From NCBI GenBank assembly GCA_964530095.1, contig CAZHAH010000009.1, positions 331 through 64,330 of the forward strand: 64,000 nucleotides of DNA. Direction: 5' to 3'. The notes beneath the pieces were generated by a model. It did not search any database and was not told where the DNA came from. It worked only from the letters and a program-made list of their open reading frames with translations. The translations under genes and the position numbers were made by a program. Numbering within the stretch: the stretch's first letter is position 1; every line of letters starts with the position of its first letter. This document shows, one piece after another, positions 4,148-60,345 of this stretch. The stretch is from an uncultured Desulfobacteraceae bacterium (GTDB lineage Bacteria > Desulfobacterota > Desulfobacteria > Desulfobacterales > CAZHA01).

Positions 4148-5294
4148 TTTGCCTCCACCATATCCTTAATATGGGCGTGTTAAAACGATATATTTGATTG
4201 TCATCATTATTGTTGACGTACCCATCGTAGACCAGGGAACCTAAAAGGTCTTTGTATGTATCTTCTAATTGATATTTTACGGCCAGATCGAAAATTTCAT
4301 TCGAAGTAATCGTATCATTTTCTGAAGCGATGTTAAGCAGCTCTTTGGCAAGATTATAATCCTTACCCTTGAAAGAGGCGCGGAGCCTTGTGTGCCAATG
4401 CTCGAAATGATGTCTTTGTGTGAGCATCTCGCCAAAGGCGCGGCCAATAACATCCTCGGTAATTCTATCGTGATTTTCATCCCTTTGAAGGTCCTTTAAC
4501 TCTCCGATTACCAATTGAATGTAAAAAGGAATCAACCATTCTATTCTTTTGAGAATCAAATCAATCATTGATCTCGAAAGATCAAAGGAAACGTTTTCTG
4601 AAAGGAGCCCAATCAGTTTTCTTGCTTCCTCACTATTAAGCGGAGGTATTTTCAGCCTTGATAGATCATTTATCGTCTTTATCGAATTTAGTTTGCCGGC
4701 AATATTCTCCAGCCCTATTGAACCTGTATATACAAATTGTATCTGGTTGCCTAATTCGGGATCATGCCTTAGCTCACGGTTGCTCTGCAAAAAATGTATG
4801 CCCGCGCTTTCTCCCTCATCTTTAATGATATTTTCAAGCGTTTCCGGAAATTCATCGAGCATGACAATCAATTTTTTATCACCTGATGAAATTGATCTCA
4901 TAATTCTTAGGAGCATTTCCATATAATTATGTTCTTCACGAACGCCAAATTCCACACCCTCCGGCCCGACTTTTTTAATCGCTGGTTTATGTATTTCTAA
5001 GAAAGTCAGCAATTTCCGTGAGTTCTTCACAAATTCAGTTTTTAATACCCGATTCACAATCTTTCTGAAGAATTCATTTTCATTGTTGATGGATTCGGTA
5101 TCGAGATAAAGAAAAGAGAAATTATCTTTCGGATTATCAAAAAGGTAATACATCAATGAAGTTTTCCCCACCCTTCTGGGTGCGGCAATCAGGATGTGAT
5201 TTCCGGACTCGATATAATCCCAGGCCTTTTCAATTAATCCTTCTCTAACAAAGAATTCTTTCCCTCTAACGGGATTACCTGTTTGTATTTTCAT
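4134..5294 (-). CDS. P-loop ATPase (archaeal-type ATPase/PF01637-like) with C-terminal wHTH-like tail
   Basis: Walker A is ILIAAPRRVGKTSLM and Walker B is LIVMLDEFPE. AGGAGAGGGG followed by ATG 5294 (MKIQTGNPVRGKEFF) is preferred over the track start 5366. There is a 14-nt overlap with the downstream ATPase gene. Confidence 0.7.
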   Translation of the reverse strand: MKIQTGNPVRGKEFFVREGLIEKAWDYIESGNHILIAAPRRVGKTSLMYYLFDNPKDNFSFLYLDTESINNENEFFRKIVNRVLKTEFVKNSRKLLTFLEIHKPAIKKVGPEGVEFGVREEHNYMEMLLRIMRSISSGDKKLIVMLDEFPETLENIIKDEGESAGIHFLQSNRELRHDPELGNQIQFVYTGSIGLENIAGKLNSIKTINDLSRLKIPPLNSEEARKLIGLLSENVSFDLSRSMIDLILKRIEWLIPFYIQLVIGELKDLQRDENHDRITEDVIGRAFGEMLTQRHHFEHWHTRLRASFKGKDYNLAKELLNIASENDTITSNEIFDLAVKYQLEDTYKDLLGSLVYDGYVNNNDDNQIYRFNTPILRIWWRQNVAN

Positions 5295-5305
5295 CCCCTC
5301 TCCTT

Positions 5306-5367
5306 TTGACAAATTGTTTGTTGTCAAATGATTTGACAATGTAATAATTGTCAATCGAAATGTCAAG
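5306..5367. promoter_or_regulatory. Tandem palindromic operators TTGACAA-N8-TTGTCAA (x2) plus a half-site
   Basis: The palindromes are at 5306-5327 and 5333-5354, and a half-site TGTCAA is at 5361-5366. They lie directly upstream (minus sense) of the SD/ATG of the 4134..5294 gene. Confidence 0.5.
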
Positions 5368-24707: not shown

Positions 24708-25898
24708 TCAGACAAGCTGAGATAGCAATGTGCGGGCGGGAACGTGGACCGGATAATCATATTTGAAACAATCGCTATTCTCAAATCCGGCATCGATGAT
24801 CAGTTGAAATGCGTGTTTAGCACCGATTCGATCTTGGAAATAGGCTAAATTTTTATTTAAATGACGTGAACCTGATGATTTTGCTTCAAGCATGAACCAG
24901 GGTTGCCGATTCTTGGTAACCAGGAAATCTATTTCTCTTTTATCTTTTGTTCTCAAAAAATGAAGGCCATATTCATCAAACCCCAGATCTTGCCACCAAG
25001 CGACAGCTTTTAACAATTGGCAGGCGATAAAATTTTCATTTTTGGCGCCCACATCATCAACCAGTGACCAATCTGTAAGATATAATTTGGGCTCTTTTAA
25101 AAGACTTCTTGCGATATTTTGGGACCACGGTCGAATAGAGAAGCAATAATAAAGCGATTCCAGAATTGTTGTCCACCGTCTGACTGAATCCTGAGAAGCC
25201 CTGATCTTTCTGGATAGGGCCGCATAGTTCACCAGTTGACCTGCCTGCTGTCGTAATAGCTCAGCCAGCAACTCGACCTGAGCAATCTCATAAACCCTGG
25301 CTGAGTCTCTTAAATCTTCACGAAATAGCAGTTTTAGTCGTGTCCTTTTCCATCTGTTATAAAACCGAGGGTTACGTTTGAGGTAGGGTTCAGGAAAGCC
25401 TCCATATCTTAAGAGTGCTGCGAAATCATCGTCATCAATGGGTCGGGGTGGAGATAGTTCATCTTGATTAAAATCTTGTTTAATAATTTCTGCAACGGAT
25501 AACGGATGCATGTGATACATAAAATAGCGACCCATCAGGCTGTCGGCGCCTTTACGGTATATATCCAATCTTGAGCTTCCGGTGACAACGACATTGAAAC
25601 GACTTCGGGCATACGTGTCATAGAATCCTTTAAGAAAATTTTTCCAGTGTGGGAACTTATGCAGTTCGTCAAAAATAATTGTTCTTTGGTCCGATGCGCC
25701 AATGGAATCCGCAACTGCCTTCGGCCCTGCTATCACTAACCTCCGATGGTCTTCGTTATCCCAGTTATAATAATGGTGGCGTTTTATAAAGGCCGTACAC
25801 GATGTCGTCTTGCCTACCTGCCTCGGACCGGCAATAAATGCCATCTGATTATCATGCGCAAAATGTTCTAAAAGAAGTGATTCATATTTCCTTTTCAT
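24708..25898 (-). CDS. AAA_14/DUF4143-type ATPase
   Basis: Walker A is IAGPRQVGKTT and Walker B is IIFDELHK. ATG 25898 (MKRKYESLLLEHF) is preferred to TTG 25919. Confidence 0.75.
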   Translation of the reverse strand: MKRKYESLLLEHFAHDNQMAFIAGPRQVGKTTSCTAFIKRHHYYNWDNEDHRRLVIAGPKAVADSIGASDQRTIIFDELHKFPHWKNFLKGFYDTYARSRFNVVVTGSSRLDIYRKGADSLMGRYFMYHMHPLSVAEIIKQDFNQDELSPPRPIDDDDFAALLRYGGFPEPYLKRNPRFYNRWKRTRLKLLFREDLRDSARVYEIAQVELLAELLRQQAGQLVNYAALSRKIRASQDSVRRWTTILESLYYCFSIRPWSQNIARSLLKEPKLYLTDWSLVDDVGAKNENFIACQLLKAVAWWQDLGFDEYGLHFLRTKDKREIDFLVTKNRQPWFMLEAKSSGSRHLNKNLAYFQDRIGAKHAFQLIIDAGFENSDCFKYDYPVHVPARTLLSQLV

Positions 25899-26114
25899 AG
25901 CCCGATTATATACCAACAAATGAACAAGTCAAGACTATTCCGCGGCATATCGTGTAATAGTCATGACCATACCACGATTTTATCTGAAATTGACCGAAAT
26001 TTATCAAAGTTTATTCCCTTGACACCTAAATTAATCTGCCATTATACCTCGGTCATAAGAGAGACTTTTAGATAATACTTTTGATTGAATGAATTCTTAA
26101 AAATGGGAGGTAAT

Positions 26115-27391: not shown

Positions 27392-27421
27392 AAAACGTGA
27401 TTGGCTGGAAAGGTTTCAAGC

Positions 27422-27763
27422 ATGAGCCAGCAAACAAATTTCGATGAATATCTTGAAAAACAGTTGCAGGATTCCGATTTTGCAAAACGCTTCAAAAAGG
27501 CCGGCCGGGCCTGGGATGTGGCCTTGCAATTAGCCTCTCTGCGCAAAGACGCCGGTTTGTCCCAAAAAGAGCTGGCCCGAAAGGTGGGGACGTCTCAGCA
27601 ACAAATTAGCCGCCTTGAATCCCCATCTTACGAGGGTCATTCCCTGAGCATGCTACGCCGAGTCGCCGAAATCTTTGGTGCGACTCTTAGTGTGGAGATT
27701 AAACGCAAAAGGCACACAAATCAGGCTGCTGTTGCTGAAAGCAAAGCCAATTACGAAGCCTAA
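27422..27763 (+). CDS. XRE-family HTH antitoxin (HigA-like)
   Basis: HTH reads LASLRKDAGLSQKELARKVGTSQQQISRLESPS. ATG 27422 (MSQQTNFDEYLEK). Confidence 0.75.
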   Translation: MSQQTNFDEYLEKQLQDSDFAKRFKKAGRAWDVALQLASLRKDAGLSQKELARKVGTSQQQISRLESPSYEGHSLSMLRRVAEIFGATLSVEIKRKRHTNQAAVAESKANYEA

Positions 27764-27797
27764 TATTAGATCACACATTATAAATAATTCTGCTCAA

Positions 27798-28004
27798 TTT
27801 CCGCGGCATGATGGAATATCAATTTGGGTTTTTTTCACGAAGCCGGCAATGTTTTGTAGGACAGCAAGAAGGATCTTTCTATCAACGACGGAAGTATAGA
27901 TGATCCGCGTGAACAGAAAAGCAAATGAATTTGCTGCAGAAATGTTTACATTCTGCCAGCGAGATCCGGAAATTGTTATGCTACAGTCAAAATATGAAAG
28001 CTAA
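27798..28004 (+). pseudogene. Degraded BrnT-like toxin remnant
   Basis: The reading ...FPRHDGISIWVFFTKPAMF...STTEV is followed by a stop. It then continues MIRVNRKANEFAAEMF...SKYES. It is reminiscent of the KHGISF..VF and IRVISxRKAxxxE blocks of BrnT. It is interrupted by an in-frame TAG and shortened. Its end overlaps the brnA start as in intact brnTA pairs. Confidence 0.3.
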
Positions 28005-28227
28005 AGAATTCGATAAAAAATTTGATAGAGGGGAGGGGATTTCGGAATTCCTTGACTTGTCGAAAGCAAGAAGACCCGGACAAGAGCAGAAGCGGGTAAA
28101 TGTTGATTTTCCTATTTGGATGATCCACCGCCTGGACAAAGAAGCCAAACGTCTGGGCGTGCCCCGGCAATCACTTATCAAAGTCTGGATCGCGGATAAA
28201 CTGCAAAAACTGACCCAATTACCTTAA
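27994..28227 (+). CDS. brnA: BrnA-type (CopG/RHH) antitoxin
   Basis: MKAKEFDKKFDRGEGISEFLDLSKARRP...KRVNVDFPIWMIHRLDKEAKRLGVPRQSLIKVWIADKL. Confidence 0.65.
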   Translation: MKAKEFDKKFDRGEGISEFLDLSKARRPGQEQKRVNVDFPIWMIHRLDKEAKRLGVPRQSLIKVWIADKLQKLTQLP

Positions 28228-29437: not shown

Positions 29438-30556
29438 ATGAAATTATTGCAAAAAAGTGTTGAATCGGTACCGCATCATTGGGGGGAGTCCTGCACAGGA
29501 ACAGAGTGCACCTTTCATCAACTTTCACCATATATTGGAAAACTAAAAAGCTCCATTGCTCGCGATCTGGTTGCTACTTATTCAAAACCAGGCGGTCTTA
29601 TTGCAGACCCTTTTTCAGGATCTGGAACTATACCTCTGGAAGCTTTATTGCAGGAACGAAGAGCCTTTGCCGCTGACATTAGTCCATATGCAAAGGTTTT
29701 GTGCCAAGCTAAACTTAAGGCACCACCGTCACTTGAGGATGCGTTGAAGCAAGCGGAAGAAGCCTTAAATCTATCATTTGCTCTTCGGAGTCCCGATTTG
29801 AGGAGAGTCCCCCTTTGGGTTAGACAGTTTTTCCACCCTCGAACACTTAAAGAAGCAATCAAATTTGCAACAATTTGTAAAAGAAACAAATACCATTTCT
29901 TGCTTGCCTGTTTTCTTGGAATATTGCACCATCAGCGCCCGGGCTTTTTATCATATCCGAGCAGCCATTTGGTCCCTTATCTCAGAGAAAAGAAATATCC
30001 GCGTGACCAATTTCCAGAGCTATATAAGTATCGAGAAATACGTACCCGTCTAATAGCCAAGATCCGAAGGGCATACAGGAGGGGACCTGCAATACGCATA
30101 AATGGAAATTCAACATACAAACATTGCTCTATAAAAAAGTTGAACCTGCCGGAATCTTTTGACTGTTTGATAACCAGCCCTCCTTATATGAACGCCCTAG
30201 ACTATAATAGAGACAATCGTTTAAGACTATGGTTTATAAATCCTGGTTATTCGATTCCTGAAGAGGACGAAGTAATTCGACAACAAGAATCTTTCAAAGA
30301 AGCTATGGCTTTATTAGCCCAAAAAGTGAATAAATCTTTAAAATCAAAAGGATATTGTGTAATTATTGTGGGAGAACACATAGCAATCAAGCCTCGTACG
30401 CATCTGTCAAATTTCGTTTGTAAAACAATTGGCGATAATGCTCCCTTACTGAAACTTCAGATGATTATAGAAGATGATATTCCAGATGTCCGAAGATCGC
30501 GACGTGATTACAGAGGTACAAAAACCGAACATTTTTTAATATTCCAAAAGGCATAG
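29438..30556 (+). CDS. Amino-methyltransferase (N4-C/N6-A type), motif I before motif IV
   Basis: 372 aa. The AdoMet motif I is DPFSGSGT (aa 57-64, context HQLSPYIGKLKSSIARDLVATYSKPGGLIADPFSGSGTIPLEALL). Catalytic motif IV is SPPY (aa 247-250, context LITSPPYMNALDY). About 180 mostly helical residues lie between them. Confidence 0.75.
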   Translation: MKLLQKSVESVPHHWGESCTGTECTFHQLSPYIGKLKSSIARDLVATYSKPGGLIADPFSGSGTIPLEALLQERRAFAADISPYAKVLCQAKLKAPPSLEDALKQAEEALNLSFALRSPDLRRVPLWVRQFFHPRTLKEAIKFATICKRNKYHFLLACFLGILHHQRPGFLSYPSSHLVPYLREKKYPRDQFPELYKYREIRTRLIAKIRRAYRRGPAIRINGNSTYKHCSIKKLNLPESFDCLITSPPYMNALDYNRDNRLRLWFINPGYSIPEEDEVIRQQESFKEAMALLAQKVNKSLKSKGYCVIIVGEHIAIKPRTHLSNFVCKTIGDNAPLLKLQMIIEDDIPDVRRSRRDYRGTKTEHFLIFQKA

Positions 30557-30557
30557 A

Positions 30558-33026
30558 ATGCGAAAAAATTTACCGGATAAAGATATTTTTATAAGAAAGA
30601 AGGTGCCAGGCCAACCGGGTGAGTACATAATAGTTGAACACAAGGGCACTGGAATGAATGGCCATGTCTTTCGAGCTCATTCTGATGAACTCAAACGAGA
30701 TATTGCTGTAAAAATTATACCAAAACAAAACCTGGGGCCAAACTGGAAACAAGAATTCCAAAAAGCTAATATTTTGCGCACAACAGCGGTCGTTAAGTTT
30801 TTCAGCGTCAATGAATGGGATGACCTCGAACATGATTGCGTTGTACTATTATCGGAATACATATATGGAAATTCACTTCGTGAATATATTCAAAAAAATA
30901 AGAATAATCTATTTATTGATTTTATAGTGGCTTTTTTAAAAGAGATTTTTTCTTTTTTCCATGAATTAACTGAAATAGGAGATCAACATGGGGATTTGCA
31001 TTCCGGAAACATCTTGGTTGAAGATCGATCCACATTATTATTAACTGGGCCACCATATGCCTTCAGGATAACCGATTTTGGCGTCACTTCAGCGGCAGAA
31101 CATGGAGATGTAAAAGACGATTATGAACACCTTGCCATTGTTCTTAAAGAACTTTTAGAAAATGTTGATTACCAGAACGCCGACTCTCAGGGAAAATATA
31201 CTTTTAATATCCTTAACGATCATTTTCTTGCAAAACATTTAATGGAAAAAGATACGTCGATTGATCCTTATGCACGGCGCCCAAAAAAACTTTTTGAACT
31301 ACTTGATGAAATTGAATCTGATTTTGAAAAAAATATAGCCGACAGAACTTTCAACAAAATAAAAGATCCCTTTGAATACCTCAGTTGTGAGCATTTTGGA
31401 GATTCACACAGTTTACTAAGGACCCTTTATTCCGATCGTTTTCTTGGACTATCTTCTATCGAAACAAGAAATAACCTAGTGCTTACGGGTCCTCGAGGTT
31501 GTGGTAAAAGCACAGTATTTAAAAGCCTTAGTCTTCAGCACAGTTTTATCATTGATGACGACAGCCCAAACAAACGATCATATATTGGTATTTACTACAG
31601 ATGTGATGATTTGTATTTCGCTTTTCCGCGGTACAGGATTCCTGATAGGCCAGAGGCATTTAATGTTCCGATGCATTTCATAATTTCTACGCTTATCAGT
31701 GAACTTTTCGATTCAATAAAAAAATGGGCATTACGATATTTTAAGAATGAGTTCGAAAAGAAGGAGGAAAAAATTTCAAAATCCGCTTGGGATTTGTTGG
31801 AGCTCAATCGTCCTCCTGAACCAGGGATTGACAGCTTTAAGGCACTTTCAGCTATGCTGCAAAAAGAAAGGATCAGAGCAGCCAACAAACAACGCTTCGT
31901 AAATGATCCAAAGCATAGTTTTGGTTTCTACTTCGGCCCTGAAATACTTATTAAAATCTGTAACATGCTTACTGAAATATTTTCCTTTCTTCAAAATCGT
32001 CCTTTCTACTTTTTTATTGATGACTACTCTTCCCCAAAGATTACTATTGATCTTCAGCAGAATCTAAATCGACTTTTTATGCAGCGGACATCCTCGTGCT
32101 TTTTTAAGCTTTCCACCGAAAGCACCGTTAGTTATACACGTTGCGATATTGATACCAAAGCTTACGTAGAAGGTAGAGAATTTACGCTTATGAATCTTGG
32201 GTTAAATTACATCCACGCGGAAGAAAAGGAAAAGCTCCGATTTATTGAAGATGTATTTAAAAGAAGATTAAAGGCGATTGACAACTATCCAGTTTCTGAT
32301 CTTGATGCGCTGTTAGGATCTTATGAGGGTCCAAATCACACACAAGCTGCGAAAATTATCCGAAAAGGGGAAAGAGTAGAGATTTGGGGAAAGGAGTCGC
32401 TTTGCAAACTGTGCTGTGGTGATATTTATCATATTATTGATTTAGTAAAACAAATGGTTGACAATATAGGTGGCTCTGAAGGACTTGCTCAAATTGAAGA
32501 CTCTCAAAAAATCTCATCTAAAGATCAAACAAAAGCTATAAGAGATCAGGCAGGCAACTTTTTAAAAGGTTTGCGCATTTTACCTAATGGGTCTCAACTG
32601 GTTGAAATTGTAAGTTCATTTGGTAACGTCGCACATTCTTATCTTAAGCATAGAAATTCTAAGAATGTAAAAACAAACCCTCCATGGCAGGCACATCGAA
32701 TTGAACCGTATGATCAATTGGCACTTTCTGATGAAGCACAAAAAATATACGATGAGCTTTTAAGGTATTCGGTATTTATTGAAGATGTCAGAGGAAAAAG
32801 CAGGCGGGGAAAAGTTGTACCCAGGCTTTATCTCAGACGGCTTCTCATTCCACATTTTAATCTTACATTCAGCATGCGTGATTCAGTTGAGCTCGAACCA
32901 GATGAAATTCAGGAACTGCTACTGACACCTAAAGAATTTGAAAAAAGACATTTAATTAAAAAAGGATTAATTGAAAACCCTGATCAATTAAAATTTCCTG
33001 GGTTTGAAAAGGAGGAACTTTGTTAA
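30558..33026 (+). CDS. Protein-kinase-like domain fused to a P-loop NTPase and a large C-terminal region
   Basis: 822 aa. Kinase signatures are a Gly-rich loop GTGMNGHVF, Lys52 in IAVKII, a catalytic loop HGDLHSGNIL (D146, N151) and ITDFG (D173). Walker A is GPRGCGKST (aa 311-319) and Walker B is FYFFIDDYS (D488, D489). The start lies 1 nt after the methyltransferase stop. Confidence 0.75.
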   Translation: MRKNLPDKDIFIRKKVPGQPGEYIIVEHKGTGMNGHVFRAHSDELKRDIAVKIIPKQNLGPNWKQEFQKANILRTTAVVKFFSVNEWDDLEHDCVVLLSEYIYGNSLREYIQKNKNNLFIDFIVAFLKEIFSFFHELTEIGDQHGDLHSGNILVEDRSTLLLTGPPYAFRITDFGVTSAAEHGDVKDDYEHLAIVLKELLENVDYQNADSQGKYTFNILNDHFLAKHLMEKDTSIDPYARRPKKLFELLDEIESDFEKNIADRTFNKIKDPFEYLSCEHFGDSHSLLRTLYSDRFLGLSSIETRNNLVLTGPRGCGKSTVFKSLSLQHSFIIDDDSPNKRSYIGIYYRCDDLYFAFPRYRIPDRPEAFNVPMHFIISTLISELFDSIKKWALRYFKNEFEKKEEKISKSAWDLLELNRPPEPGIDSFKALSAMLQKERIRAANKQRFVNDPKHSFGFYFGPEILIKICNMLTEIFSFLQNRPFYFFIDDYSSPKITIDLQQNLNRLFMQRTSSCFFKLSTESTVSYTRCDIDTKAYVEGREFTLMNLGLNYIHAEEKEKLRFIEDVFKRRLKAIDNYPVSDLDALLGSYEGPNHTQAAKIIRKGERVEIWGKESLCKLCCGDIYHIIDLVKQMVDNIGGSEGLAQIEDSQKISSKDQTKAIRDQAGNFLKGLRILPNGSQLVEIVSSFGNVAHSYLKHRNSKNVKTNPPWQAHRIEPYDQLALSDEAQKIYDELLRYSVFIEDVRGKSRRGKVVPRLYLRRLLIPHFNLTFSMRDSVELEPDEIQELLLTPKEFEKRHLIKKGLIENPDQLKFPGFEKEELC

Positions 33027-34069
33027 AGGTTCTTAGAATTGATAGAAAATTGGAGAAACTCGACAAGCCATCCATGCTGCCCACTGACACTGGGCCTGTA
33101 AATAAAGATGATACACTAATTGTGTGTGCAGGATTTGAAGATAGAGCAATAAAAGCGTTGAATTTGGTAATAGAATCGGGACAAATTGGATTTTCTTTAG
33201 TTATTATAGAGTATCTGCCAGAAGTGCGCGAAAACAAAATTGACGAGATTATGAACAAATGCAAAGAGTGCGGTATATCATTTAATCGTTTGCGCTATGA
33301 TCGAGCAAACCCTTCAGGTTTTGGAGACAAATTATTAAGTATCCTGGATCCGGATAGCGGCCGAATTTTTGTTGATATTTCAGGCATGTCTAGATTGCTT
33401 ATAGTGCAGGTGTTGAGTACATTGGGGAAATCTCCTTTTAATTTTTCTAAGGTCTCACTTTTATTTACAGTTGCTTTAGAATATCCTCCAAGTGAAAAAG
33501 AAGTTAATGAAGCTATTATAAAGATGGAAGAAAATTCATTTTATTCCGTCATGTTCCTATCTTCAGGAATATTTGAGTTAACAGTTGTACCGGAGTTATC
33601 TTCTGTATCATTAGAAGGTCAGCCCATTAGAGTGGTTGCATTTCCATCCTTCAACCCACACCAGCTTGCTGCTTTGCGAACCGAAGTCCAGGCATCTTTT
33701 TTTACCTTAATTCATGGAATACCGCCCTTAAAAGAAAACACATGGAGGCCTCAAAAAATCAAGGCGCTGAACCGAACAGAGGAGATTACTAACCGAGAAG
33801 ATATTGAGGCAAGCACATTAGAATACCAGGAAACTTTAACGATTTTGCTCGACATTTATGATAAATATGGTGTGATGGAAAGGATAGTCATTGCACCTAC
33901 CGGTAGTAAAATGCAGGCTGTGGCTGTAGGCATCTTCAGAGCCTTTATGGACGATATTCAAATAGTTTATCCAACACCACGTCTTTTCCCAGAACCCAAG
34001 AAATATACAAAAGGATCAAGGCAGTTGTACCTCCTACACCTCGATTCTTTCTCAGAGATAAGACAGTAA
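33020..34069 (+). CDS. Hypothetical protein with two CARF-like Rossmann halves
   Basis: 349 aa. A TTG start follows AAGGAGGAA and overlaps the kinase gene stop by 7 nt. There is an internal repeat. LIVCAGFEDRAIKAL...RIFVDISGMSRLLIV corresponds to RVVAFPSFNPHQLAAL...RIVIAPTGSKMQAVAV. These motifs recall the Csa3-type GF[DE]/SGGMR and Can/Card1-type TGGTK CARF signatures. Confidence 0.5.
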   Translation: MLKVLRIDRKLEKLDKPSMLPTDTGPVNKDDTLIVCAGFEDRAIKALNLVIESGQIGFSLVIIEYLPEVRENKIDEIMNKCKECGISFNRLRYDRANPSGFGDKLLSILDPDSGRIFVDISGMSRLLIVQVLSTLGKSPFNFSKVSLLFTVALEYPPSEKEVNEAIIKMEENSFYSVMFLSSGIFELTVVPELSSVSLEGQPIRVVAFPSFNPHQLAALRTEVQASFFTLIHGIPPLKENTWRPQKIKALNRTEEITNREDIEASTLEYQETLTILLDIYDKYGVMERIVIAPTGSKMQAVAVGIFRAFMDDIQIVYPTPRLFPEPKKYTKGSRQLYLLHLDSFSEIRQ

Positions 34070-34686: not shown

Positions 34687-34908
34687 ATGGAAGACCTTTT
34701 TATTTCAGACCCGACTATCATGATCGGAAAGCCTGTAATCATCGGTACGCGTATTACAGTCGAATCAATTATTGAAAAATTGGCTGCCGGGGAGACCATT
34801 GAACAGAGCCTTGAAGCGCATCCTCGATTAACAAAAAATTCAATGGATGGTTTAAGGGACATCCTTACTTTTATTGATAGCAATGGAGAGGAAAGCCATG
34901 CCACGTGA
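34687..34908 (+). CDS. DUF433 domain protein (antitoxin-like)
   Basis: IMIGKPVIIGTRITVESIIEKLAAGETIEQSLEAHPRLT. Confidence 0.7.
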   Translation: MEDLFISDPTIMIGKPVIIGTRITVESIIEKLAAGETIEQSLEAHPRLTKNSMDGLRDILTFIDSNGEESHAT

Positions 34909-35233
34909 TTATGAGGACTATTTGAACGATATTCTCGATGCGATCCTGAAAATAGAGGATTTTACCAAGGGGATGACGCTTGAAACCTTCAAGGAAGATG
35001 ATAAAACAGTTTTCGCGGTCATCCGCGCCATGGAAATCATCGGTGAAGCTGCCAAGCATATTCCGGATGATGTCCGCTCGCAACATCCGCAAGTGCCCTG
35101 GAAAGCCATGACCGGCATGCGGGACATTTTGGCCCACGATTACTTCGGTGTTAATTTGAATACTATATGGATGACAGCAAGGGAGAAAATACCCTTGTTA
35201 GAGGCTTCGCTGAAACAAATGCTTGGGAAATAA
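34895..35233 (+). CDS. hepT: HepT-like HEPN toxin (DUF86)
   Basis: The RX4HXY motif reads MRDILAHDY. ATG 34895 (MPRDYEDYLNDILDA) overlaps the DUF433 3' end. Confidence 0.8.
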   Translation, partial: AMPRDYEDYLNDILDAILKIEDFTKGMTLETFKEDDKTVFAVIRAMEIIGEAAKHIPDDVRSQHPQVPWKAMTGMRDILAHDYFGVNLNTIWMTAREKIPLLEASLKQMLGK

Positions 35234-35237
35234 TGCA

Positions 35238-35531
35238 ATGAAGAAATTATCTTTGATTAAAAAGACATTACAAAAACAAAAAGATACTTTGTCCGCTAAC
35301 TACGGCGTCAAAGAAATCGGTCTGTTCGGCTCTGTGACCAAAAGGGCGGCAGCGCCGTCAAGCGACATCGACATCCTGATAGATTTTCATAAAACGGTCG
35401 ATCTGTTCACCTTCATTGATTTGAAGCATCATTTGTCGGAACTTCTCGACGCCGAAGTCGATCTTGTGATGAAGGATGGGTTGAAGCCGACGATTGGGAA
35501 ACGGATATTGAAAGAAGTTGAGTATATTTAA
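35238..35531 (+). CDS. mntA: MNT-type minimal nucleotidyltransferase antitoxin
   Basis: GLFGSVTKRAAAPSSDIDILIDF (GS...DxD). ATG 35238 lies 4 nt after the hepT stop. Confidence 0.8.
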   Translation: MKKLSLIKKTLQKQKDTLSANYGVKEIGLFGSVTKRAAAPSSDIDILIDFHKTVDLFTFIDLKHHLSELLDAEVDLVMKDGLKPTIGKRILKEVEYI

Positions 35532-35612: not shown

Positions 35613-35969
35613 TTGACAACAGACAACAACATCTATGACATTGTTATAGTGGGTGGTGGGATTATGGGAAGTTCCACCGCCTATCATCTCCTTCATGACG
35701 ATGGGCGCCTGGAAATCGCCGTCATCGAGCCGGACCCGACCTACGAGCGGGCTTCCTCAACGCTCTCATTGGCAAACGTTCGCATTCAATACAGTTTGAA
35801 GCAGAACGTGCAGATATCACAACATACCTTTGAGGTTTTGGGAAAATTCAATGCGGAGATGGAAGTCGCTGGACAAAGACCCAACATCAATTTTCGATCA
35901 GAAGGAAATCTCTTTTTGACCGATGCCGGCACCCGTGAGGTGTTTGACTTTCAGGAGGCCAATGCATGA
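35613..35969 (+). pseudogene. N-terminal fragment of an FAD-dependent (DAO-type) oxidoreductase
   Basis: The dinucleotide fold reads YDIVIVGGGIMGSSTAYHL. It has only 118 aa where the family has about 380-400. Its stop overlaps the Fic start (ATGA). Confidence 0.55.
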
Positions 35970-37066
35970 GCTTTGATCCGGAAAAGCCCTATAACGATCT
36001 TCCCCTGTTGCCACCAAAGGCAGAGATCGAAACCAAAGCAGTATTAAAAAAGCTGGTGGCCGCCGGCCAATTCCTTGCGGAGTTGAAAGGGTATGTTGAA
36101 CTCCTGCCTAACAAAGCCATTATTCTTAATTCTATCATACTGCAGGAAGCAAAAGACAGCTCGGAAATAGAAAATATCGTGACAACCCATGATCAACTGT
36201 TCCGGGCAATAGCGGCCAGTAAAAAAATCGTGGAACCGGCGGTAAAAGAAGTCCTGAATTATCGCAGCGCCCTTTACAAAGGCTTTTATCTGGTAAAGGA
36301 ACGCAATCTGTTAACCACCAATACGATTGTCGACGTCCAGGAAGAGCTGGAACAAAACAGAGCGGGTATCAGGAAGCTTCCCGGGACAAAGTTGGTTAAC
36401 GACAAGACCGGTGAGGTGATGTATACCCCGCCGGAAAATGAAAAAACAATCCGGAACTTGCTTGCAAATCTTGAGGCATATATCAATACAGACCCGGAAA
36501 CCCTCCATCCATTGATCAAGCTGGCCATTATTCATTATCAGTTTGAATCCATTCATCCTTTTTATGACGGAAACGGAAGAACCGGACGGATCATCAATGT
36601 GCTCTATCTAGTGATGAAAGGGTTACTTTCCGAACCGCTTTTGTATTTAAGCCGGTATATCATTCAGCATAAATCCGATTATTACGGGTTACTGAGAAAG
36701 GTAACCGTCGAGAATGCCTGGGAAGGGTGGATATGCTTTATGCTTACGGCAGTAGAGAAAACAGCCGGCTATACCCTGGCTTTAAGCAAAGGGATCGTCG
36801 CGCTCATGGAAAACGTCCGCAAATCCCTGCAGAACGAACGGCCCAAAATATATTCCCATGAACTTGTGGAAACACTTTTTACCAACGTATATACGAGAAT
36901 AGACCATTTGGTGGAAAAGAATATCGCCTCCCGTAATGTGGCTGGAAGATACCTTAAGGAACTGGAGTCAATTGGTATCTTGAAAAGAGAAAAGGTCGGG
37001 CGGGATGTTTTTTATATAAATTTCGGACTGTATGATTTGTTTAAAAGCTTTCCAAATATACACTGA
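35966..37066 (+). CDS. Fic-family AMPylase-type protein, class II (internal inhibitory helix)
   Basis: 366 aa. The Fic motif is HPFYDGNGRTGRI. The N-terminal SSEIEN fits [ST]xxxE[GN]. There is a C-terminal wHTH (RYLKELESIGILKREKVGRDVFY). Confidence 0.85.
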   Translation: MSFDPEKPYNDLPLLPPKAEIETKAVLKKLVAAGQFLAELKGYVELLPNKAIILNSIILQEAKDSSEIENIVTTHDQLFRAIAASKKIVEPAVKEVLNYRSALYKGFYLVKERNLLTTNTIVDVQEELEQNRAGIRKLPGTKLVNDKTGEVMYTPPENEKTIRNLLANLEAYINTDPETLHPLIKLAIIHYQFESIHPFYDGNGRTGRIINVLYLVMKGLLSEPLLYLSRYIIQHKSDYYGLLRKVTVENAWEGWICFMLTAVEKTAGYTLALSKGIVALMENVRKSLQNERPKIYSHELVETLFTNVYTRIDHLVEKNIASRNVAGRYLKELESIGILKREKVGRDVFYINFGLYDLFKSFPNIH

Positions 37067-37556: not shown

Positions 37557-37856
37557 GTGTCACTCGACGGTGCGAATGAGGTCATAACTACCCGCATCGT
37601 TTCCGTCGTACTCGTAAACAAAACCCAGGTCCATCCCAGAGAAGTTTTTGCCGACCCCATTACTGACCGGGCATCGGCCATCATAGTCGTTCACAATCAT
37701 CCTTCGGGGAAATTGGTACCAAGCAAAGAAGATATTGAGATGACCTCGCAATTGAAAGCCGGGGGAGAAACACTGGGGATCAGACTGCTGGATCACATTA
37801 TATTTAATCGAAAAGATTATTACAGTTTCCTGGAAAACGGGGACATACAAACGTGA
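37557..37856 (+). CDS. radC: RadC-like JAB/MPN domain protein, N-terminally truncated
   Basis: VVHNHPSGKLVPSKEDIEMT and LLDHIIF. It has only 99 aa and a GTG start. The frame is open upstream only back to a TGA at about 37487, with no ATG. Confidence 0.6.
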   Translation: MSLDGANEVITTRIVSVVLVNKTQVHPREVFADPITDRASAIIVVHNHPSGKLVPSKEDIEMTSQLKAGGETLGIRLLDHIIFNRKDYYSFLENGDIQT

Positions 37857-57275: not shown

Positions 57276-57328
57276 CCCCAGTAATTTGGAATCAATTAAC
57301 GCAGCGTTATGATGAAAATCGAGGTGTA

Positions 57329-58752
57329 TTATATTATTTCCCGATCAGCAGCCTTTAAAATTCTTTCAAACTCTTTGATGACGGCATCCTCAAGCGGTGG
57401 CACTTCATGTTTATTCAATATTTCGGTAACCTTATTCTTTGCTCGTTCATGCACGCCCCTGGAGTCTTTGACCCATTCCGAATAGGTACTAAAGTCGAAT
57501 ATTGTTGGATAAAAACGGATTTCATCCCGAAAATGGTTGTAGGTATGATCGTCGGCAATGAAATGCCCTTTTGGGCCAGCGCGATACACAGCATCGAGTC
57601 CGATTTTTTCCTCGTTGACGTCAAACTTGGCCCACATCCGCCGCGTGATTTGCACTATTTCATCGTCGATGGCAAGTTGCGTCAAACTGGACCCCATCCC
57701 CCCGTCCAGAGTGCCGGCACCGGAAAGGATGGAGGCTCCAGATGCTGCAGCCATCAATGTCCCCATACCCTTCTGAAACAATAGCTGCTCGAAGATGAAA
57801 CCATCGGACACCAAAGCAGGGCATTCGGCGGGCATTTTATAATATCTCGTACCCAGCTGCGCCAGGGCACCATATAACAACAGATTCTCCGGCCCGCCGG
57901 TAATGGAGTTGCCAGTCCGCATTTCCACCGCGCTCGGATAGCAATAATAAACGGTAGCTGTGCCGGGATAAAGGTTTTGGAGCAGCGTGAAAGCCCCTAA
58001 AACCTCTGCATTGCCTTGCGCAATGGTTCCAACAAGGGTAACCGGAGCACTGACGCCGAGCATTGGCTCCACGGCTACTTTAACAGGCAATCCATATTCA
58101 CCGCACACTTTCAGCCGTTCGATCTCGTCTTCCGGATAATAAAGCGGTGACATAGGACAAACAATGGCATGAAAGAGAGGGCGCTGGATCATGGCCTCTT
58201 TGGTGCCCCTGACGGCAAGCTGCATCTCGACAAGGTATTTCATATTTATCGAGCCCATGGTAAGGCCCATGAAGTGCTTTCGCGAATTTTCCAACAGTAT
58301 TTTGGTTGCATAAAGATCAGCGGATTTCGAAGGAACATCCTGGATGCTCATGAGCCCGGAAAAGCCGATATCACCTAAACCATCGGAAACAATGCCCGCC
58401 GCTTTTTGATCCTTCATGGTTGCCGCTCTAAACCCACCCCCTCTTTCTGCCGGCACCAAAGTGTCTCCCGATCCACAACGCACCAGAAAATCGCTGTCAC
58501 AACTCAGATCGTAATCATATTCCGGATCCCTTCCCGCCAAGCATATGGTTCGGGGGGCCTTAGCCACACTACGCTCGACCAAATCCGCCGGAAATCGAAC
58601 AAGATTTTTTTTATATCGATCATTGCTCCGGCGTCTGCCAACTTTTCCAGCGTCTCTTTATGGTCGATGCGTATGCCGGTGTTCTCCAGGATAGCAAGTG
58701 AAGCCTCATGGATTTTCTTCATATCCTCATTGCTCAAGATCTCAATTCGCAT
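57329..58752 (-). pseudogene. MttB-superfamily (non-Pyl) methyltransferase interrupted by a 1-nt frameshift in an A8 run
   Basis: The N-terminal ORF 58504..58752 reads MRIEILSNEDMKKIHEASLAILENTGIRIDHKETLEKLADAGAMIDIKK. The main ORF 57329..58582 reads ..VERSVAKAPRTICLAGRD... One extra A at 58605-58612 would fuse them into DIKKNLVRFPADLVERSVAKAP. Confidence 0.7.
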
Positions 58753-58770
58753 AATAATTATTCACCATGG

Positions 58771-60345
58771 TCATGTACGCAGAAGGTTGCGACCCGGGCG
58801 CTCACCGGTGTGTTCTGAATGATTGATTACCAGTCGGCCGTTCACGATCACATGTTCCACTCCTCGGGCATAAGCAAAAGGCTTGGAATCGGTGACCCCA
58901 TCATCTAGCTTTTCATAGTCCAGCACAACCACGTCGGCAAAATATCCTTTGCGAAGCAAACCACGATTACGGAGTCCAAAATGAGTCGCCGGCATGCTGG
59001 TCATTTTTCGAACAGCATCTTCCAGATGCAACGTTTTTCTCTGGCGTACATGGCATGTAAGAAAATGAATCATACCGGCATAGCTGGCTTTGAAAGGCAG
59101 GCTATCACGAACCGGACTGTCTAAATCGCTGCTGATGATGTCTGCTTCTAAATTGAATAAAGGATGAGAAACCATTTCAGCAACATGCTCTTGGGTGAAC
59201 AGTATGCCCAAGGCGATCAAATCATCCATGCCGGCACCGGCGGCGGCCATGATGTCAAAATAGCAATCCCACGGGTCTTTTCTCCAGAATTCAGCAATTT
59301 CTTCAAAATTTTTACCGACGATTTCCGGAAAAGGCTTTTCTTGTATGATACGCACCCGGTACCAATCGCCGCGGTGGATGAATCGCCAGTAACGGTCACA
59401 TTCCGTACGCAAGCGTTTGCGCACAGCAGTATCTTTCAATCTCAGGGCGGCCTGTTCAGCCCCTCCCTCCAGTAGCCAGGGCGGTAGGATTGAGGCCAGT
59501 TTTCCGAAACCGTTTTTATAACCTACGCAGTCAGTCTGAATGTCAAATCCCTTTTCACGGGTTTGCTCCAAGGTCTCCACAGCCCTTAACCAGGCCCCTT
59601 GAGGAGCGTTTGTGTTTTCCCGCACGTTAAGGTGAGAGAGTTGGCCCCTCGTATTGCTTTCCATGACGATTTGAACGAATTCCTCCACAGCCGGCTGCAG
59701 ATGCTCGTCATAGTTACGGATATGACTGGCATACATGCCACCATAAGCCCCTGCTATTTTAGCCAGTTGCGTCACCTCGTCCGTTGAAGCCAGGCGCCCG
59801 GGTTCATATTCAAGTCCCGTAGACAGACCCAGAGCGCCTGCATCCATGGCCTCCCTAACATGGTTTTCCATGGCCTTCATTTGATCAGCAGTAACTTCAT
59901 TACTTGGGATAGCAACCCCAGCTGCTGCCCGGATAGTACTGTGGCCCACGAACCACGCTAAATTCTCAGCGGTTTTCATTTGGGCGACTGTGTCCAAATA
60001 CTCAGCAAAACTTGACCAGGTAACCGGTCCATTGTATGCGAAGTCTTTTAAAACTTCTTTACAGTAGATTCGAGAAATGTCACTCAACGGTGCCATACTA
60101 AATCCGCAATTGCCGATTATTTCTGTGGTCACGCCCTGTCGAACTGTACTTTGCATGGCTGGATTGGTGTGAATGCTCCAATCCGTATGACTATGACAAT
60201 CAATAAATCCCGGACAGACGACCTTCCCTTTGGCTTCGATGATATGCTCGGCCTGAGCTTCGGGCAGACGCTCCACAGCCACGATGCGATCCCCCTCAAT
60301 CATCACGTCAGCAGGGTAAAGAGGATTGCCGGTACCATCGGCCAA
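58771..60345 (-). CDS. N-acyl-D-amino-acid deacylase (D-aminoacylase) family amidohydrolase
   Basis: GFIDCHSHTD metal motif. Family-typical N-terminal residues continue upstream of the TTG at 60345 (see finding). Confidence 0.8.
   Translation of the reverse strand: MADGTGNPLYPADVMIEGDRIVAVERLPEAQAEHIIEAKGKVVCPGFIDCHSHTDWSIHTNPAMQSTVRQGVTTEIIGNCGFSMAPLSDISRIYCKEVLKDFAYNGPVTWSSFAEYLDTVAQMKTAENLAWFVGHSTIRAAAGVAIPSNEVTADQMKAMENHVREAMDAGALGLSTGLEYEPGRLASTDEVTQLAKIAGAYGGMYASHIRNYDEHLQPAVEEFVQIVMESNTRGQLSHLNVRENTNAPQGAWLRAVETLEQTREKGFDIQTDCVGYKNGFGKLASILPPWLLEGGAEQAALRLKDTAVRKRLRTECDRYWRFIHRGDWYRVRIIQEKPFPEIVGKNFEEIAEFWRKDPWDCYFDIMAAAGAGMDDLIALGILFTQEHVAEMVSHPLFNLEADIISSDLDSPVRDSLPFKASYAGMIHFLTCHVRQRKTLHLEDAVRKMTSMPATHFGLRNRGLLRKGYFADVVVLDYEKLDDGVTDSKPFAYARGVEHVIVNGRLVINHSEHTGERPGRNLLRT

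Follow-up and report, generated by a model that had tools for sequence, protein, structure and literature searches.

Among methylation-based defences, Pgl/BREX type 2 (BREX-2) employs a kinase, a methyltransferase and an ATPase, while in MANTIS an ATPase of the ORC/Cdc6 clade (MtsA) loads the methyltransferase onto DNA and activates it, and BrxC, the ORC/Cdc6-clade ATPase of BREX, has a related methyltransferase-scaffolding role. MADS is a methylation-associated defence system of eight genes (mad1-8), and the defence kinases Stk2 and PD-T4-6 (Depardieu 2016, Vassallo 2022) reportedly provide a precedent for phosphorylation as the output of abortive infection. A further relative is the "small family" of Makarova et al. 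2014 (PMC4012209), which combines a Zn ribbon, an S/T/Y kinase, a distinctive AAA+ domain with an Arg in the P-loop, a CARF domain and a winged helix-turn-helix (wHTH), and for which CARF-controlled kinase signalling was proposed in the same paper. Here we analyse a stretch of 64,000 nucleotides from an uncultured Desulfobacteraceae bacterium (assembly GCA_964530095.1, contig CAZHAH010000009.1, positions 331 to 64,330; hereafter the window), and in it a gene which an earlier inspection of the letters (hereafter the sequence-only reading) had taken for a kinase-like domain fused to a P-loop NTPase. Judging from sequence profiles and from a structure predicted with AlphaFold2 (AF2), it is well supported that the product is a two-enzyme protein, consisting of a predicted minimal, catalytically intact eukaryotic-like kinase and an ORC/Cdc6-like AAA+ ATPase. 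The gene is the middle one of a three-gene cassette, no description of which was found in the literature searched.

The cassette is ordered as amino-methyltransferase, kinase-ATPase and tandem CARF-like protein, and its parts are as follows:

29438..30556, + strand: gene 1, amino-methyltransferase of 372 aa (Pfam, PADLOC)
30558..33026, + strand: gene 2, fusion of a kinase and an ORC/Cdc6-like AAA+ ATPase, 822 aa
33009..33015, + strand: Shine-Dalgarno sequence AAGGAGG, inside the end of gene 2 and 4 nt upstream of the TTG start of gene 3
33020..34069, + strand: gene 3, tandem Rossmann-like (CARF-like) protein of 349 aa (PADLOC, AF2, Foldseek)

Gene 1 ends 1 nt before gene 2, and genes 2 and 3 overlap by 7 nt, a case of translational coupling. 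The same triad was met in about 25 loci, whose hosts belong to many phyla of bacteria and archaea. By protein identity it was found, with differing flanks, in eight metagenomic or genomic loci (three metagenomic and five more), and it is complete in 13/17 loci of GTDB genomes; in the four incomplete ones the methyltransferase was undetected in 4/4 and the CARF-like gene also in 2/4. Three of these loci reach the end of a contig, where a gene could have been missed, and the fourth is decayed. The hosts include Bacteroidota, Verrucomicrobiota, Victivallales, Acidobacteriota, Nitrospira, Burkholderiales, Methanoperedens and other lineages, with incomplete copies in Thermoplasmatales, Nevskiales and Halosimplex. 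A Bradyrhizobium plasmid also carries the cassette, with the RefSeq names "DNA methyltransferase" and "hypothetical protein", and RefSeq at present labels such genes "protein kinase" or "hypothetical protein". As established computationally, the methyltransferase and the CARF-like protein are genetically linked to the kinase-ATPase, and the link is obligatory. It is also well supported that the cassette is an autonomous, horizontally mobile three-gene operon with gene 2 at its centre, which agrees with the hub position that the sequence-only reading had given to this protein.

The composition of the cassette varies in an informative way. Kinase and ATPase are separate adjacent genes in the loci L026 (5992-8687) and L027 (5172-7695), a Bradyrhizobium plasmid and a metagenomic contig, while kinase, ATPase and CARF-like protein are fused into one polypeptide of ~1,220 aa in the proteins P0377 and P0390 and in the locus L020 (a Stahlbacteria metagenome-assembled genome, 2429-6097). 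Such fission and fusion (Rosetta-stone) variants link the kinase, ATPase and CARF-like modules to each other. What looks like a decayed copy is found on the Halosimplex aquaticum chromosome NZ_CP118158.1 (L013, 6800-11655), where the N-terminus of the kinase is missing, the methyltransferase was undetected and the CARF-like gene is in two pieces ~1.6 kb apart. A profile of the ATPase alone, used in a search for other N-terminal effectors, retrieved among the matches listed only the kinase-fused family and no domain swaps. A phage or plasmid origin was considered and rejected, as there was no homologue of the cassette in the phage collection and only one full match in a search of 72,556 plasmids.

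In five of the about 25 loci, belonging to close as well as distant subclades, the cassette is adjoined by a gene for ThyX, the FAD-dependent thymidylate synthase (Pfam Thy1):

L001, 5685-6668: ThyX gene
L016, 10823-11836: ThyX gene
L017, 10873-11904: ThyX gene
L026, 9867-10790: ThyX gene
L027, 8839-9765: ThyX gene

The ThyX proteins of L001, L016, L017 and L026 are mutually close (phmmer E 1e-112 to 1e-139; the comparison covered these four and not L027), and ThyX is absent from the window. It is possible that ThyX is an accessory fourth gene which ties the cassette to nucleotide methylation.

As for novelty, the kinase-AAA+ fusion is already catalogued (in the 2014 paper, in PADLOC and, for its parts, in Pfam) and is not new, and the family is large, not small. 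The statement in the sequence-only reading that kinase-NTPase fusions are unusual was overstated, since the family was described in 2014 (PMC4012209) and corresponds to a PADLOC model, PDLC01925 CARF6--CARF_STK_AAA, of 1,187 positions. More than 850 homologues of gene 2 (clusters at 90% identity) have equal length and architecture; among 1.84 billion representatives at 50% identity there are 1,287 matches to its protein, 178 of them with E<=1e-30, and collinear full-length relatives are found down to ~24% identity. Residues 14-699 are collinear with positions 35-718 of the PADLOC model (E 6e-21). As in the 2014 family, a kinase is followed by an AAA+ core with an Arg in Walker A (R313, conserved in 82/83 sequences; all conservation counts given here are from an alignment of 83 diverse homologues with 81% down to ~20% identity to the query), 2/83 homologues have an N-terminal Zn ribbon, and the fused relatives P0377, P0390 and L020 resemble it further. 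The Arg and the Zn ribbon tie the gene 2 protein to that family. It differs in that it lacks the Zn ribbon and that the window encodes the CARF-like part in its own gene, while the second half of gene 3 is predicted to be a second Rossmann-like domain and not a wHTH; the sole mention of a methylase in the main text of the 2014 paper (PMC4012209) is unrelated to the fused family. Within the literature searched, the strict cassette with its SPPY methyltransferase, its bacterial and archaeal breadth, the split and fused variants and the ThyX accessory appear to be undescribed.

We rate the cassette as a variant of methylation-associated multi-enzyme defence systems. Pgl/BREX-2 shares with it a kinase (PglW), a methyltransferase (PglX) and an ORC/Cdc6-clade ATPase (BrxC/PglY), a link to methylation and the lack of a dedicated classical restriction enzyme. 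Unlike in BREX-2, kinase and ATPase are one polypeptide here, the methyltransferase, at 372 aa, is a small one without a variable recognition domain, and a CARF-like partner stands in place of PglZ and the helicase. Membership in BREX/Pgl was rejected, as none of the three proteins has a PADLOC match to PglZ, BrxC, PglX or PglW at E<=0.01. MADS is likewise a methylation-linked system that contains a kinase, and matches at the level of domains are obtained with PADLOC for the kinase (mad6, 6e-13), the methyltransferase (mad2, 1e-7) and the P-loop (mad8, 4e-3); membership was rejected here too, because NCBIfam MAD6 scores 40.7 bits against a cut-off of 460, and the cassette has three genes and another architecture. 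The MANTIS and DUF499 BREX-related systems, in which an ORC/Cdc6-clade AAA+ protein is encoded with a methyltransferase, represent a working precedent for the pairing in the cassette. However, they contain a PLD-helicase nuclease effector and DUF3870 and have neither kinase nor CARF, and with no PADLOC match to their models the cassette does not belong to them.

Gene 2 is an open reading frame (ORF) of 822 codons with a TAA stop at 33024-33026 and an ATG start, the latter backed by N-terminal residues kept among homologues (M1, P6, F11). Re-reading by script found the ORF and every motif quoted in the sequence-only reading at the residue numbers given there: GTGMNGHVF at 30-38, IAVKII at 49-54 (K52), HGDLHSGNIL at 144-153 (D146, N151), ITDFG at 171-175 (D173), GPRGCGKST at 311-319 and FYFFIDDYS at 483-491. 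The first four belong to the kinase:

30615..31352, + strand: protein-kinase-like domain, aa ~20-265 (Pfam Pkinase over aa 26-184, AF2, Foldseek)

That the kinase-like catalytic core is genuine can be seen from Pfam Pkinase (PF00069), which matches the whole protein with 45.0 bits (E 1.2e-11) and the isolated fragment with 48.4 bits, both above the cut-off of 31.7, and from the AF2 model, where aa ~20-265 form a bilobal kinase (mean predicted local distance difference test score (pLDDT) of 87.5 for the protein and ~90 over aa 20-260). With Foldseek, the top kinase matches in the PDB are PknB (1mru, E 8.5e-9) and Stk1 (9ymt/4eqm), with TMt 0.54-0.62, and the matches to PknB, Stk1 and WNK have probability 1.0 and TMt 0.5-0.62; the best solved match by sequence is Stk1/PknB as well (4eqm/9ymt, E 2.6e-6). 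The elements present are the Gly loop G30-x-G32-x-x-G35, K52, E66 in helix alphaC, H144-G-D146-L-H-S-G-N151, D173-F-G and D188 in alphaF, and the catalytic set is kept almost throughout, with 82/83 for G32, K52, E66, D146 and D173, and 83/83 for H144, N151 and D188, so that the conservation of the catalytic Lys and Asp is confirmed. The flanking residues of the Gly loop are less conserved (G30 54/83, G35 60/83).

What the domain lacks is the region between the DFG motif and alphaF. The sequence-only reading had seen no APE or activation segment, and indeed no APE motif was found in the gene 2 protein by a script search, D173 is only 15 residues from D188, and the Pkinase match stops at profile position 152/263. 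In canonical kinases there are ~36 residues between the DFG Asp and the alphaF Asp. The loss of the activation segment and of the P+1 substrate platform is therefore well supported, and the lost peptide-binding platform suggests a restricted substrate, which could be the kinase itself or a partner docked to it, or possibly an acceptor other than a protein. The best matches in sequence and fold, PknB and Stk1, have what is missing here (activation loop, P+1 loop, APE, as well as PASTA and transmembrane parts), and they have a Lys where this kinase has His148. In 77/83 homologues a His is found, as in UbiB/ABC1, at the catalytic-loop position where Hanks kinases have the Lys, and because of it the ABC1 profile gives a borderline partial match (aa 96-187, 23.4-26.4 bits against a cut-off of 22.9). 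The suggestion that the domain is closer to RIO/Kdo/APH/UbiB than to Hanks kinases holds in one respect only, as the likeness to atypical kinases is confined to the HGDLHxGN loop, which resembles that of UbiB/ABC1. In the comparison of profiles on the fragment, Pkinase (E 1e-12) is far ahead of ABC1 (5e-6) and APH (0.2), and membership among the RIO/Bud32/UbiB/APH/Kdo kinases was rejected (Bud32 TIGR03724 17.4 against 125, UbiB TIGR01982 15.3 against 487, APH E 0.21). Going by profiles and the predicted fold, the kinase is a minimal atypical member of the eukaryotic-like (Hanks-type) fold and not a RIO/Kdo/APH enzyme. Among the defence kinases in PADLOC it matches many PD-T4-6 models (the best at 3.4e-15, aa 19-181) and mad6 (6e-13); PD-T4-6 and Stk2 differ in being stand-alone kinases with a full C-lobe and without AAA+, methyltransferase or CARF partners.

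For the remaining residues, the following features were assigned:

31458..32222, + strand: AAA+ nucleotide-binding core, aa ~301-555 (PF24389, RAD17/ORC4 matches, AF2)
31488..31511, + strand: Walker A, G311-P-R313-G-C-G-K317-S (R313 82/83, K317 81/83)
31638..31991, + strand: helical insert of ~118 aa between strand 2 and strand 3 (AF2)
32004..32024, + strand: Walker B strand, F483-Y-F-F-I-D488-D489 (D488 and D489 83/83)
32223..32657, + strand: helical lid region, aa ~556-700, with invariant R570 and a C-S-G-D622 motif (AF2, conservation)
32658..32957, + strand: compact C-terminal alpha/beta domain, aa ~701-800 (AF2, PF24389)

The Pfam family PF24389 (ORC-CDC6-like) matches gene 2 with 152.4 bits against a cut-off of 27 (E 2.6e-44). 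In the whole protein it covers aa 289-588 (profile 18-317) and aa 611-779 (profile 415-571 of 571), and on separate fragments aa 295-577 (profile 24-308) and again aa 611-779 (profile 415-571). The C-terminal ~330 residues, in which the sequence-only reading could recognise no motif, thus belong to the same ORC/Cdc6-like family, as aa 611-779 match the C-terminal part of its profile. A family profile of aa 285-822 matched RAD17 (E 1.2e-5) and ORC4 (5e-3) in the PDB, while the remaining matches were to the P-loop only. The predicted AAA+ strands are b1 (307-310), b2 (343-348), b3 (483-488), b4 (514-519) and b5 (542-546). Walker A can be written as G-P-R313-G-C-G-K317-[ST], with the Arg within the P-loop almost invariant, and the conservation of K317, D488 and D489 argues that the NTPase motifs are not fortuitous. 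Between Walker A and Walker B there are ~170 residues, a gap for which an inserted domain had been proposed; this is borne out by the AF2 model, in which four helices (369-394, 396-414, 427-447 and 462-474) are inserted in the AAA+ core and account for the wide spacing. Conservation is lower in the insert than anywhere else in the protein, with 1.15 bits per column against 2.1 in the flanking core. Candidates for AAA+ Arg-finger or sensor residues, assigned from sequence, are R540 (62/83) before strand 5, S519/T520/E521 after strand 4, and R570; the alignment of SGD622 with the sensor-2 "SGDIR" region of Rad17 has a weak, non-significant score.

The other topology proposed in the sequence-only reading, an ABC- or KAP-like one, did not hold. 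There is no LSGGQ-like ABC signature motif, ABC_tran covers only the P-loop (aa 301-327, E 0.015), and the Pfam scan gave no KAP match. On the evidence of the profiles, what follows the kinase domain is a single ORC-CDC6-like AAA+ module and not an ABC or KAP NTPase. Its C-terminal alpha/beta domain, which is predicted with confidence, has conserved basic residues (R714, K747, R756, R760) and is a candidate nucleic-acid-binding module; a profile of aa 590-822 retrieved from the PDB only a designed helical repeat and Hsh49, that is, noise.

Gene 1 encodes a methyltransferase in which the S-adenosylmethionine (SAM) motif I, DPFSGSGT (aa 57-64), stands ahead of motif IV, SPPY (aa 247-250). Its profile matches are Pfam N6_N4_Mtase (6e-10) and UPF0020 (5e-11) and PADLOC MTase_II (1.2e-20), and it is weakly similar to the N2-guanine tRNA methyltransferase Trm14 and to UPF0020/RlmKL. 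The nearest solved relative is a weak one, the DNA N4-cytosine methyltransferase 8s9m, with the opposite (permuted) motif order. This enzyme is the slowest-evolving component of the cassette, keeping 43-58% identity where the ATPase has 24-30% (in L020, 57% against 24%); helical insert, kinase, ATPase and CARF-like protein all evolve fast compared with it. The stretch GILHHQRPGFLSYPSSHLVPYLR (aa 161-183) is nearly invariant among the methyltransferase genes of L001-L027, and no variable target-recognition domain was found in the alignment of the cassette methyltransferases, where the whole protein is conserved.

The AF2 model of the gene 3 product (pLDDT 88.8, predicted TM-score (pTM) 0.91) has two domains, aa ~30-172 and ~185-345. 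The PADLOC model CARF6--CARF_CARF_CARF matches aa 29-344 (E 2.8e-14), four further CARF6 models match as well, and gene 3 also corresponds to the C-terminal third (positions 889-1184) of CARF6--CARF_STK_AAA (E 1.2e-9); there is no Pfam or NCBIfam match. In domain 1, D119-I-S121-G-M-S-R125 directly follows strand 4 (116-119) and fits the CARF signature [DN]x[ST]xxx[RK], which was defined by Makarova et al. 2014 (PMC4012209), and G38-F-E40-D-R42 follows the strand at 32-36; D119, S121, E40 and R42 are invariant. In domain 2, T294-G-S-K297 follows strand 4. With Foldseek, the model finds Csa3-cA4 (6w11), Csm6 (5fsh/8jbb) and Cad1 (9c67) at probability 0.92-1.0 and a TM-score of only 0.26-0.43, and these CARF matches are intermixed, at similar E-values, with KCC C-terminal domains, RCK rings and methyltransferases. 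Against viral structures only generic Rossmann folds were obtained, and a profile of the CARF-like family has no match in the PDB. To call the protein CARF-like is reasonable, although short of proof.

To hypothesize, we give a probability of roughly 55% to the cassette being a defence system of the BREX/Pgl/MADS type, associated with methylation and without a nuclease, in which, by analogy, the AAA+ module would be the sensor, the kinase the output and the CARF-like protein a ligand input. The methyltransferase would place a self mark at a fixed target in the nucleic acid of the host, and the AAA+ module would hold nucleic acid through its C-terminal domain and probe the invader through the fast-evolving helical insert. 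An unmarked or foreign target would lead to ATP-dependent assembly of the AAA+ module, which in turn may switch on the attached kinase. As it has no generic peptide-binding platform, the kinase would then act on itself, on its docked CARF-like partner or on a small number of particular proteins of host or phage, and their phosphorylation would arrest the infection, while the tandem CARF-like protein would be a small-molecule (nucleotide) input that gates the kinase-ATPase. In favour of such a system are the intact kinase and AAA+ sites, the tight operon, the recurring triad, the module fusions, the context of defence genes and the uneven evolutionary rates.

Several points weigh against it. 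The CARF assignment is composed of a PADLOC profile, a signature motif and folds of low TM-score, and generic Rossmann folds score alike; no cyclic oligoadenylate or cyclic-nucleotide synthase (Cas10, CD-NTase) accompanies the CARF-like gene, be it in the window or in the eight loci (nine records) whose genes were called and annotated with Pfam. An invariant methyltransferase without a hypervariable recognition region is atypical of specificity in the style of restriction-modification (R-M) or BREX, and leaves room for an RNA or fixed-structure target, or for no role as self-marker at all. Among the cassette genes there was no sign of a nuclease or of another classical effector, and the literature searched contained no experimental work on any member of the gene 2 family. 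DNA binding by the C-terminal domain is something that we infer, and in the Foldseek search of the full-length gene 2 model against the PDB all 50 matches listed were kinases, with none for aa 285-822.

The invariance of the methyltransferase also speaks for a possible but clearly less probable scenario, a ligand-triggered abortive-infection kinase, in which the CARF-like protein would be the primary sensor of a phage-made or infection-induced nucleotide, and the methyltransferase would be an antidote, a regulator or a second effector (e.g., on RNA) and not a self-marker. The CARF signature and the CARF6 profile of gene 3, the missing recognition domain of the methyltransferase and its weak likeness to Trm14 and UPF0020/RlmKL, and the presence of a nucleotide-methylating enzyme, ThyX, beside the cassette in five loci all suit it, as does the idea of Makarova et al. 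2014 (PMC4012209) that CARF domains sense modified nucleotides. On the other hand, the best profiles of the methyltransferase are those of DNA N6/N4 methylases (with the PADLOC Type II methyltransferases at 1e-20), a messenger synthase is not encoded nearby, either in the window or in the eight annotated loci, and the pairing of an ORC-like AAA+ protein with a methyltransferase is typical of DNA-surveillance systems. A bolder reading, which we hold to be unlikely, is a nuclease-free immune system where a CARF protein unlinked to CRISPR or CBASS gates an ORC-like AAA+ module for DNA surveillance whose sole output is the minimal kinase; instead of writing sequence-specific self marks, the methyltransferase and ThyX would then produce or erase a methylated signal, nucleotide or nucleic acid, for the tandem CARF to read, and the kinase, having no peptide-binding platform, could even phosphorylate a nucleotide or nucleic acid rather than a protein. 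It seems equally unlikely that the cassette is a selfish addiction module akin to toxin-antitoxin pairs, as proposed for Pgl, with a kinase-ATPase or methyltransferase that is toxic unless balanced and with maintenance by post-segregational killing. Tightly coupled genes, a patchy horizontal distribution, the low-GC island and the toxin-antitoxin modules around the cassette would fit, the Halosimplex copy L013 is decayed, and Pgl has been described as a toxin/antitoxin of methyltransferase, kinase and ATPase; however, an 822-aa two-enzyme protein with a ligand sensor is far more complex than a usual toxin-antitoxin pair, the rapid evolution of the insert suggests that it is in an arms race with an outside partner, and copies of the cassette are lacking in the phage collection and almost lacking among the plasmids (the one full match).

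Two further alternatives concern the chemistry and the fold of gene 2 rather than its role. In vivo the kinase-like domain might be no protein kinase at all and might instead regulate the AAA+ module as a Bud32/RIO-like ATPase or switch, or as a kinase of small molecules or nucleic acids, which we find a little less likely still. The absence of activation segment, P+1 loop and APE, with its 15-residue spacing, would then be explained, along with the HGDLHxGN loop, where His replaces the Hanks Lys in 77/83 as in UbiB/ABC1, and the borderline ABC1 match; against this, sequence and fold are nearest to the genuine Ser/Thr kinases PknB/Stk1, the PADLOC defence kinases PD-T4-6 (3e-15) and mad6 (6e-13) match, and the full set of Lys-Glu, HxD, N and DFG is what phosphotransfer needs, although this set does not identify the acceptor. 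The architecture of a RIO/Kdo/APH-type kinase with an ABC/KAP-like NTPase and an unrelated C-terminal region is the least probable of all and is already contradicted. Its atypical-kinase-like catalytic-loop motif, the wide Walker spacing and the ABC_tran match (P-loop only, E 0.015) are outweighed by PF24389 (E 2.6e-44 over aa 289-588 and 611-779), by the RAD17 and ORC4 matches without any LSGGQ-type signature, by the helical insert in the AAA+ core, which accounts for the spacing, and by Bud32, UbiB and APH models that remain far below their cut-offs.

CARF domains are otherwise understood almost only as receivers of cyclic oligoadenylates made by Cas10, which activate nucleases or similar effectors, and here a CARF-like tandem is joined to a kinase and an ORC-like ATPase, in a methyltransferase operon and far from CRISPR. 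If the cassette is a defence system as proposed, it would add a branch with phosphorylation output to the methylation-based defences (R-M, BREX, DISARM, MADS, MANTIS), and would offer a compact three-gene model of ~4.6 kb for the way in which ORC/Cdc6-clade ATPases tie an immune response to the state of methylation. It would also raise the question of which ligand is sensed by a CARF that is independent of CRISPR.

The cassette locus has 38% GC as compared with 47% for the window, which is otherwise chromosomal, with ordinary metabolic genes. The neighbours of the cassette are:

24708-25919: AAA_14/DUF4143 ATPase (PADLOC candidate PDC-S01, E 4e-58)
27401-27763: HTH_3-type regulator
27675-27899: small ORF
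27925-28227: BrnA-family antitoxin (NCBIfam E 2.8e-37)
34874-35531: overlapping toxin-antitoxin pair of a HepT-like HEPN RNase (119 aa) and an MNT nucleotidyltransferase (102 aa; PADLOC PDC-S09)
35966-37066: SoFic-type Fic protein, 1.9 kb downstream of the cassette (PADLOC SoFic E 2.8e-112; Pfam Fic_N, Fic, SoFic-like_C)
37557-37856: ORF of 99 aa with a RadC-like JAB domain (profile positions 27-120 only), probably a fragment at the edge of the island

SoFic is a known defence gene family. At other cassette loci the neighbours include AIPR, Schlafen/AlbA_2, an MmeI-like R-M enzyme with PD-(D/E)xK, DruA, PIN toxins, M78/HTH proteins and transposases. The cassette is usually situated among defence or toxin-antitoxin genes, here within a low-GC island. 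No cas genes, CRISPR array, cyclase, tRNA or Rfam families were found in the window, and with no cas gene or array there, a link to type III CRISPR was rejected.

Two other places in the window deserve mention. A second low-GC stretch (2129-5366, 39-41% GC) encodes a 672-aa protein, with weak STAND-NTPase matches (nSTAND5, NPHP3_N) and a weak PADLOC match to Csa3, and an AAA_14-like protein, and may be another defence locus. On the - strand, the ORF at 57326-58900 belongs to the MttB family (trimethylamine methyltransferase-like); it starts at position 84 of the Pfam profile and has in-frame stops just upstream, and may be frameshifted or a pseudogene.

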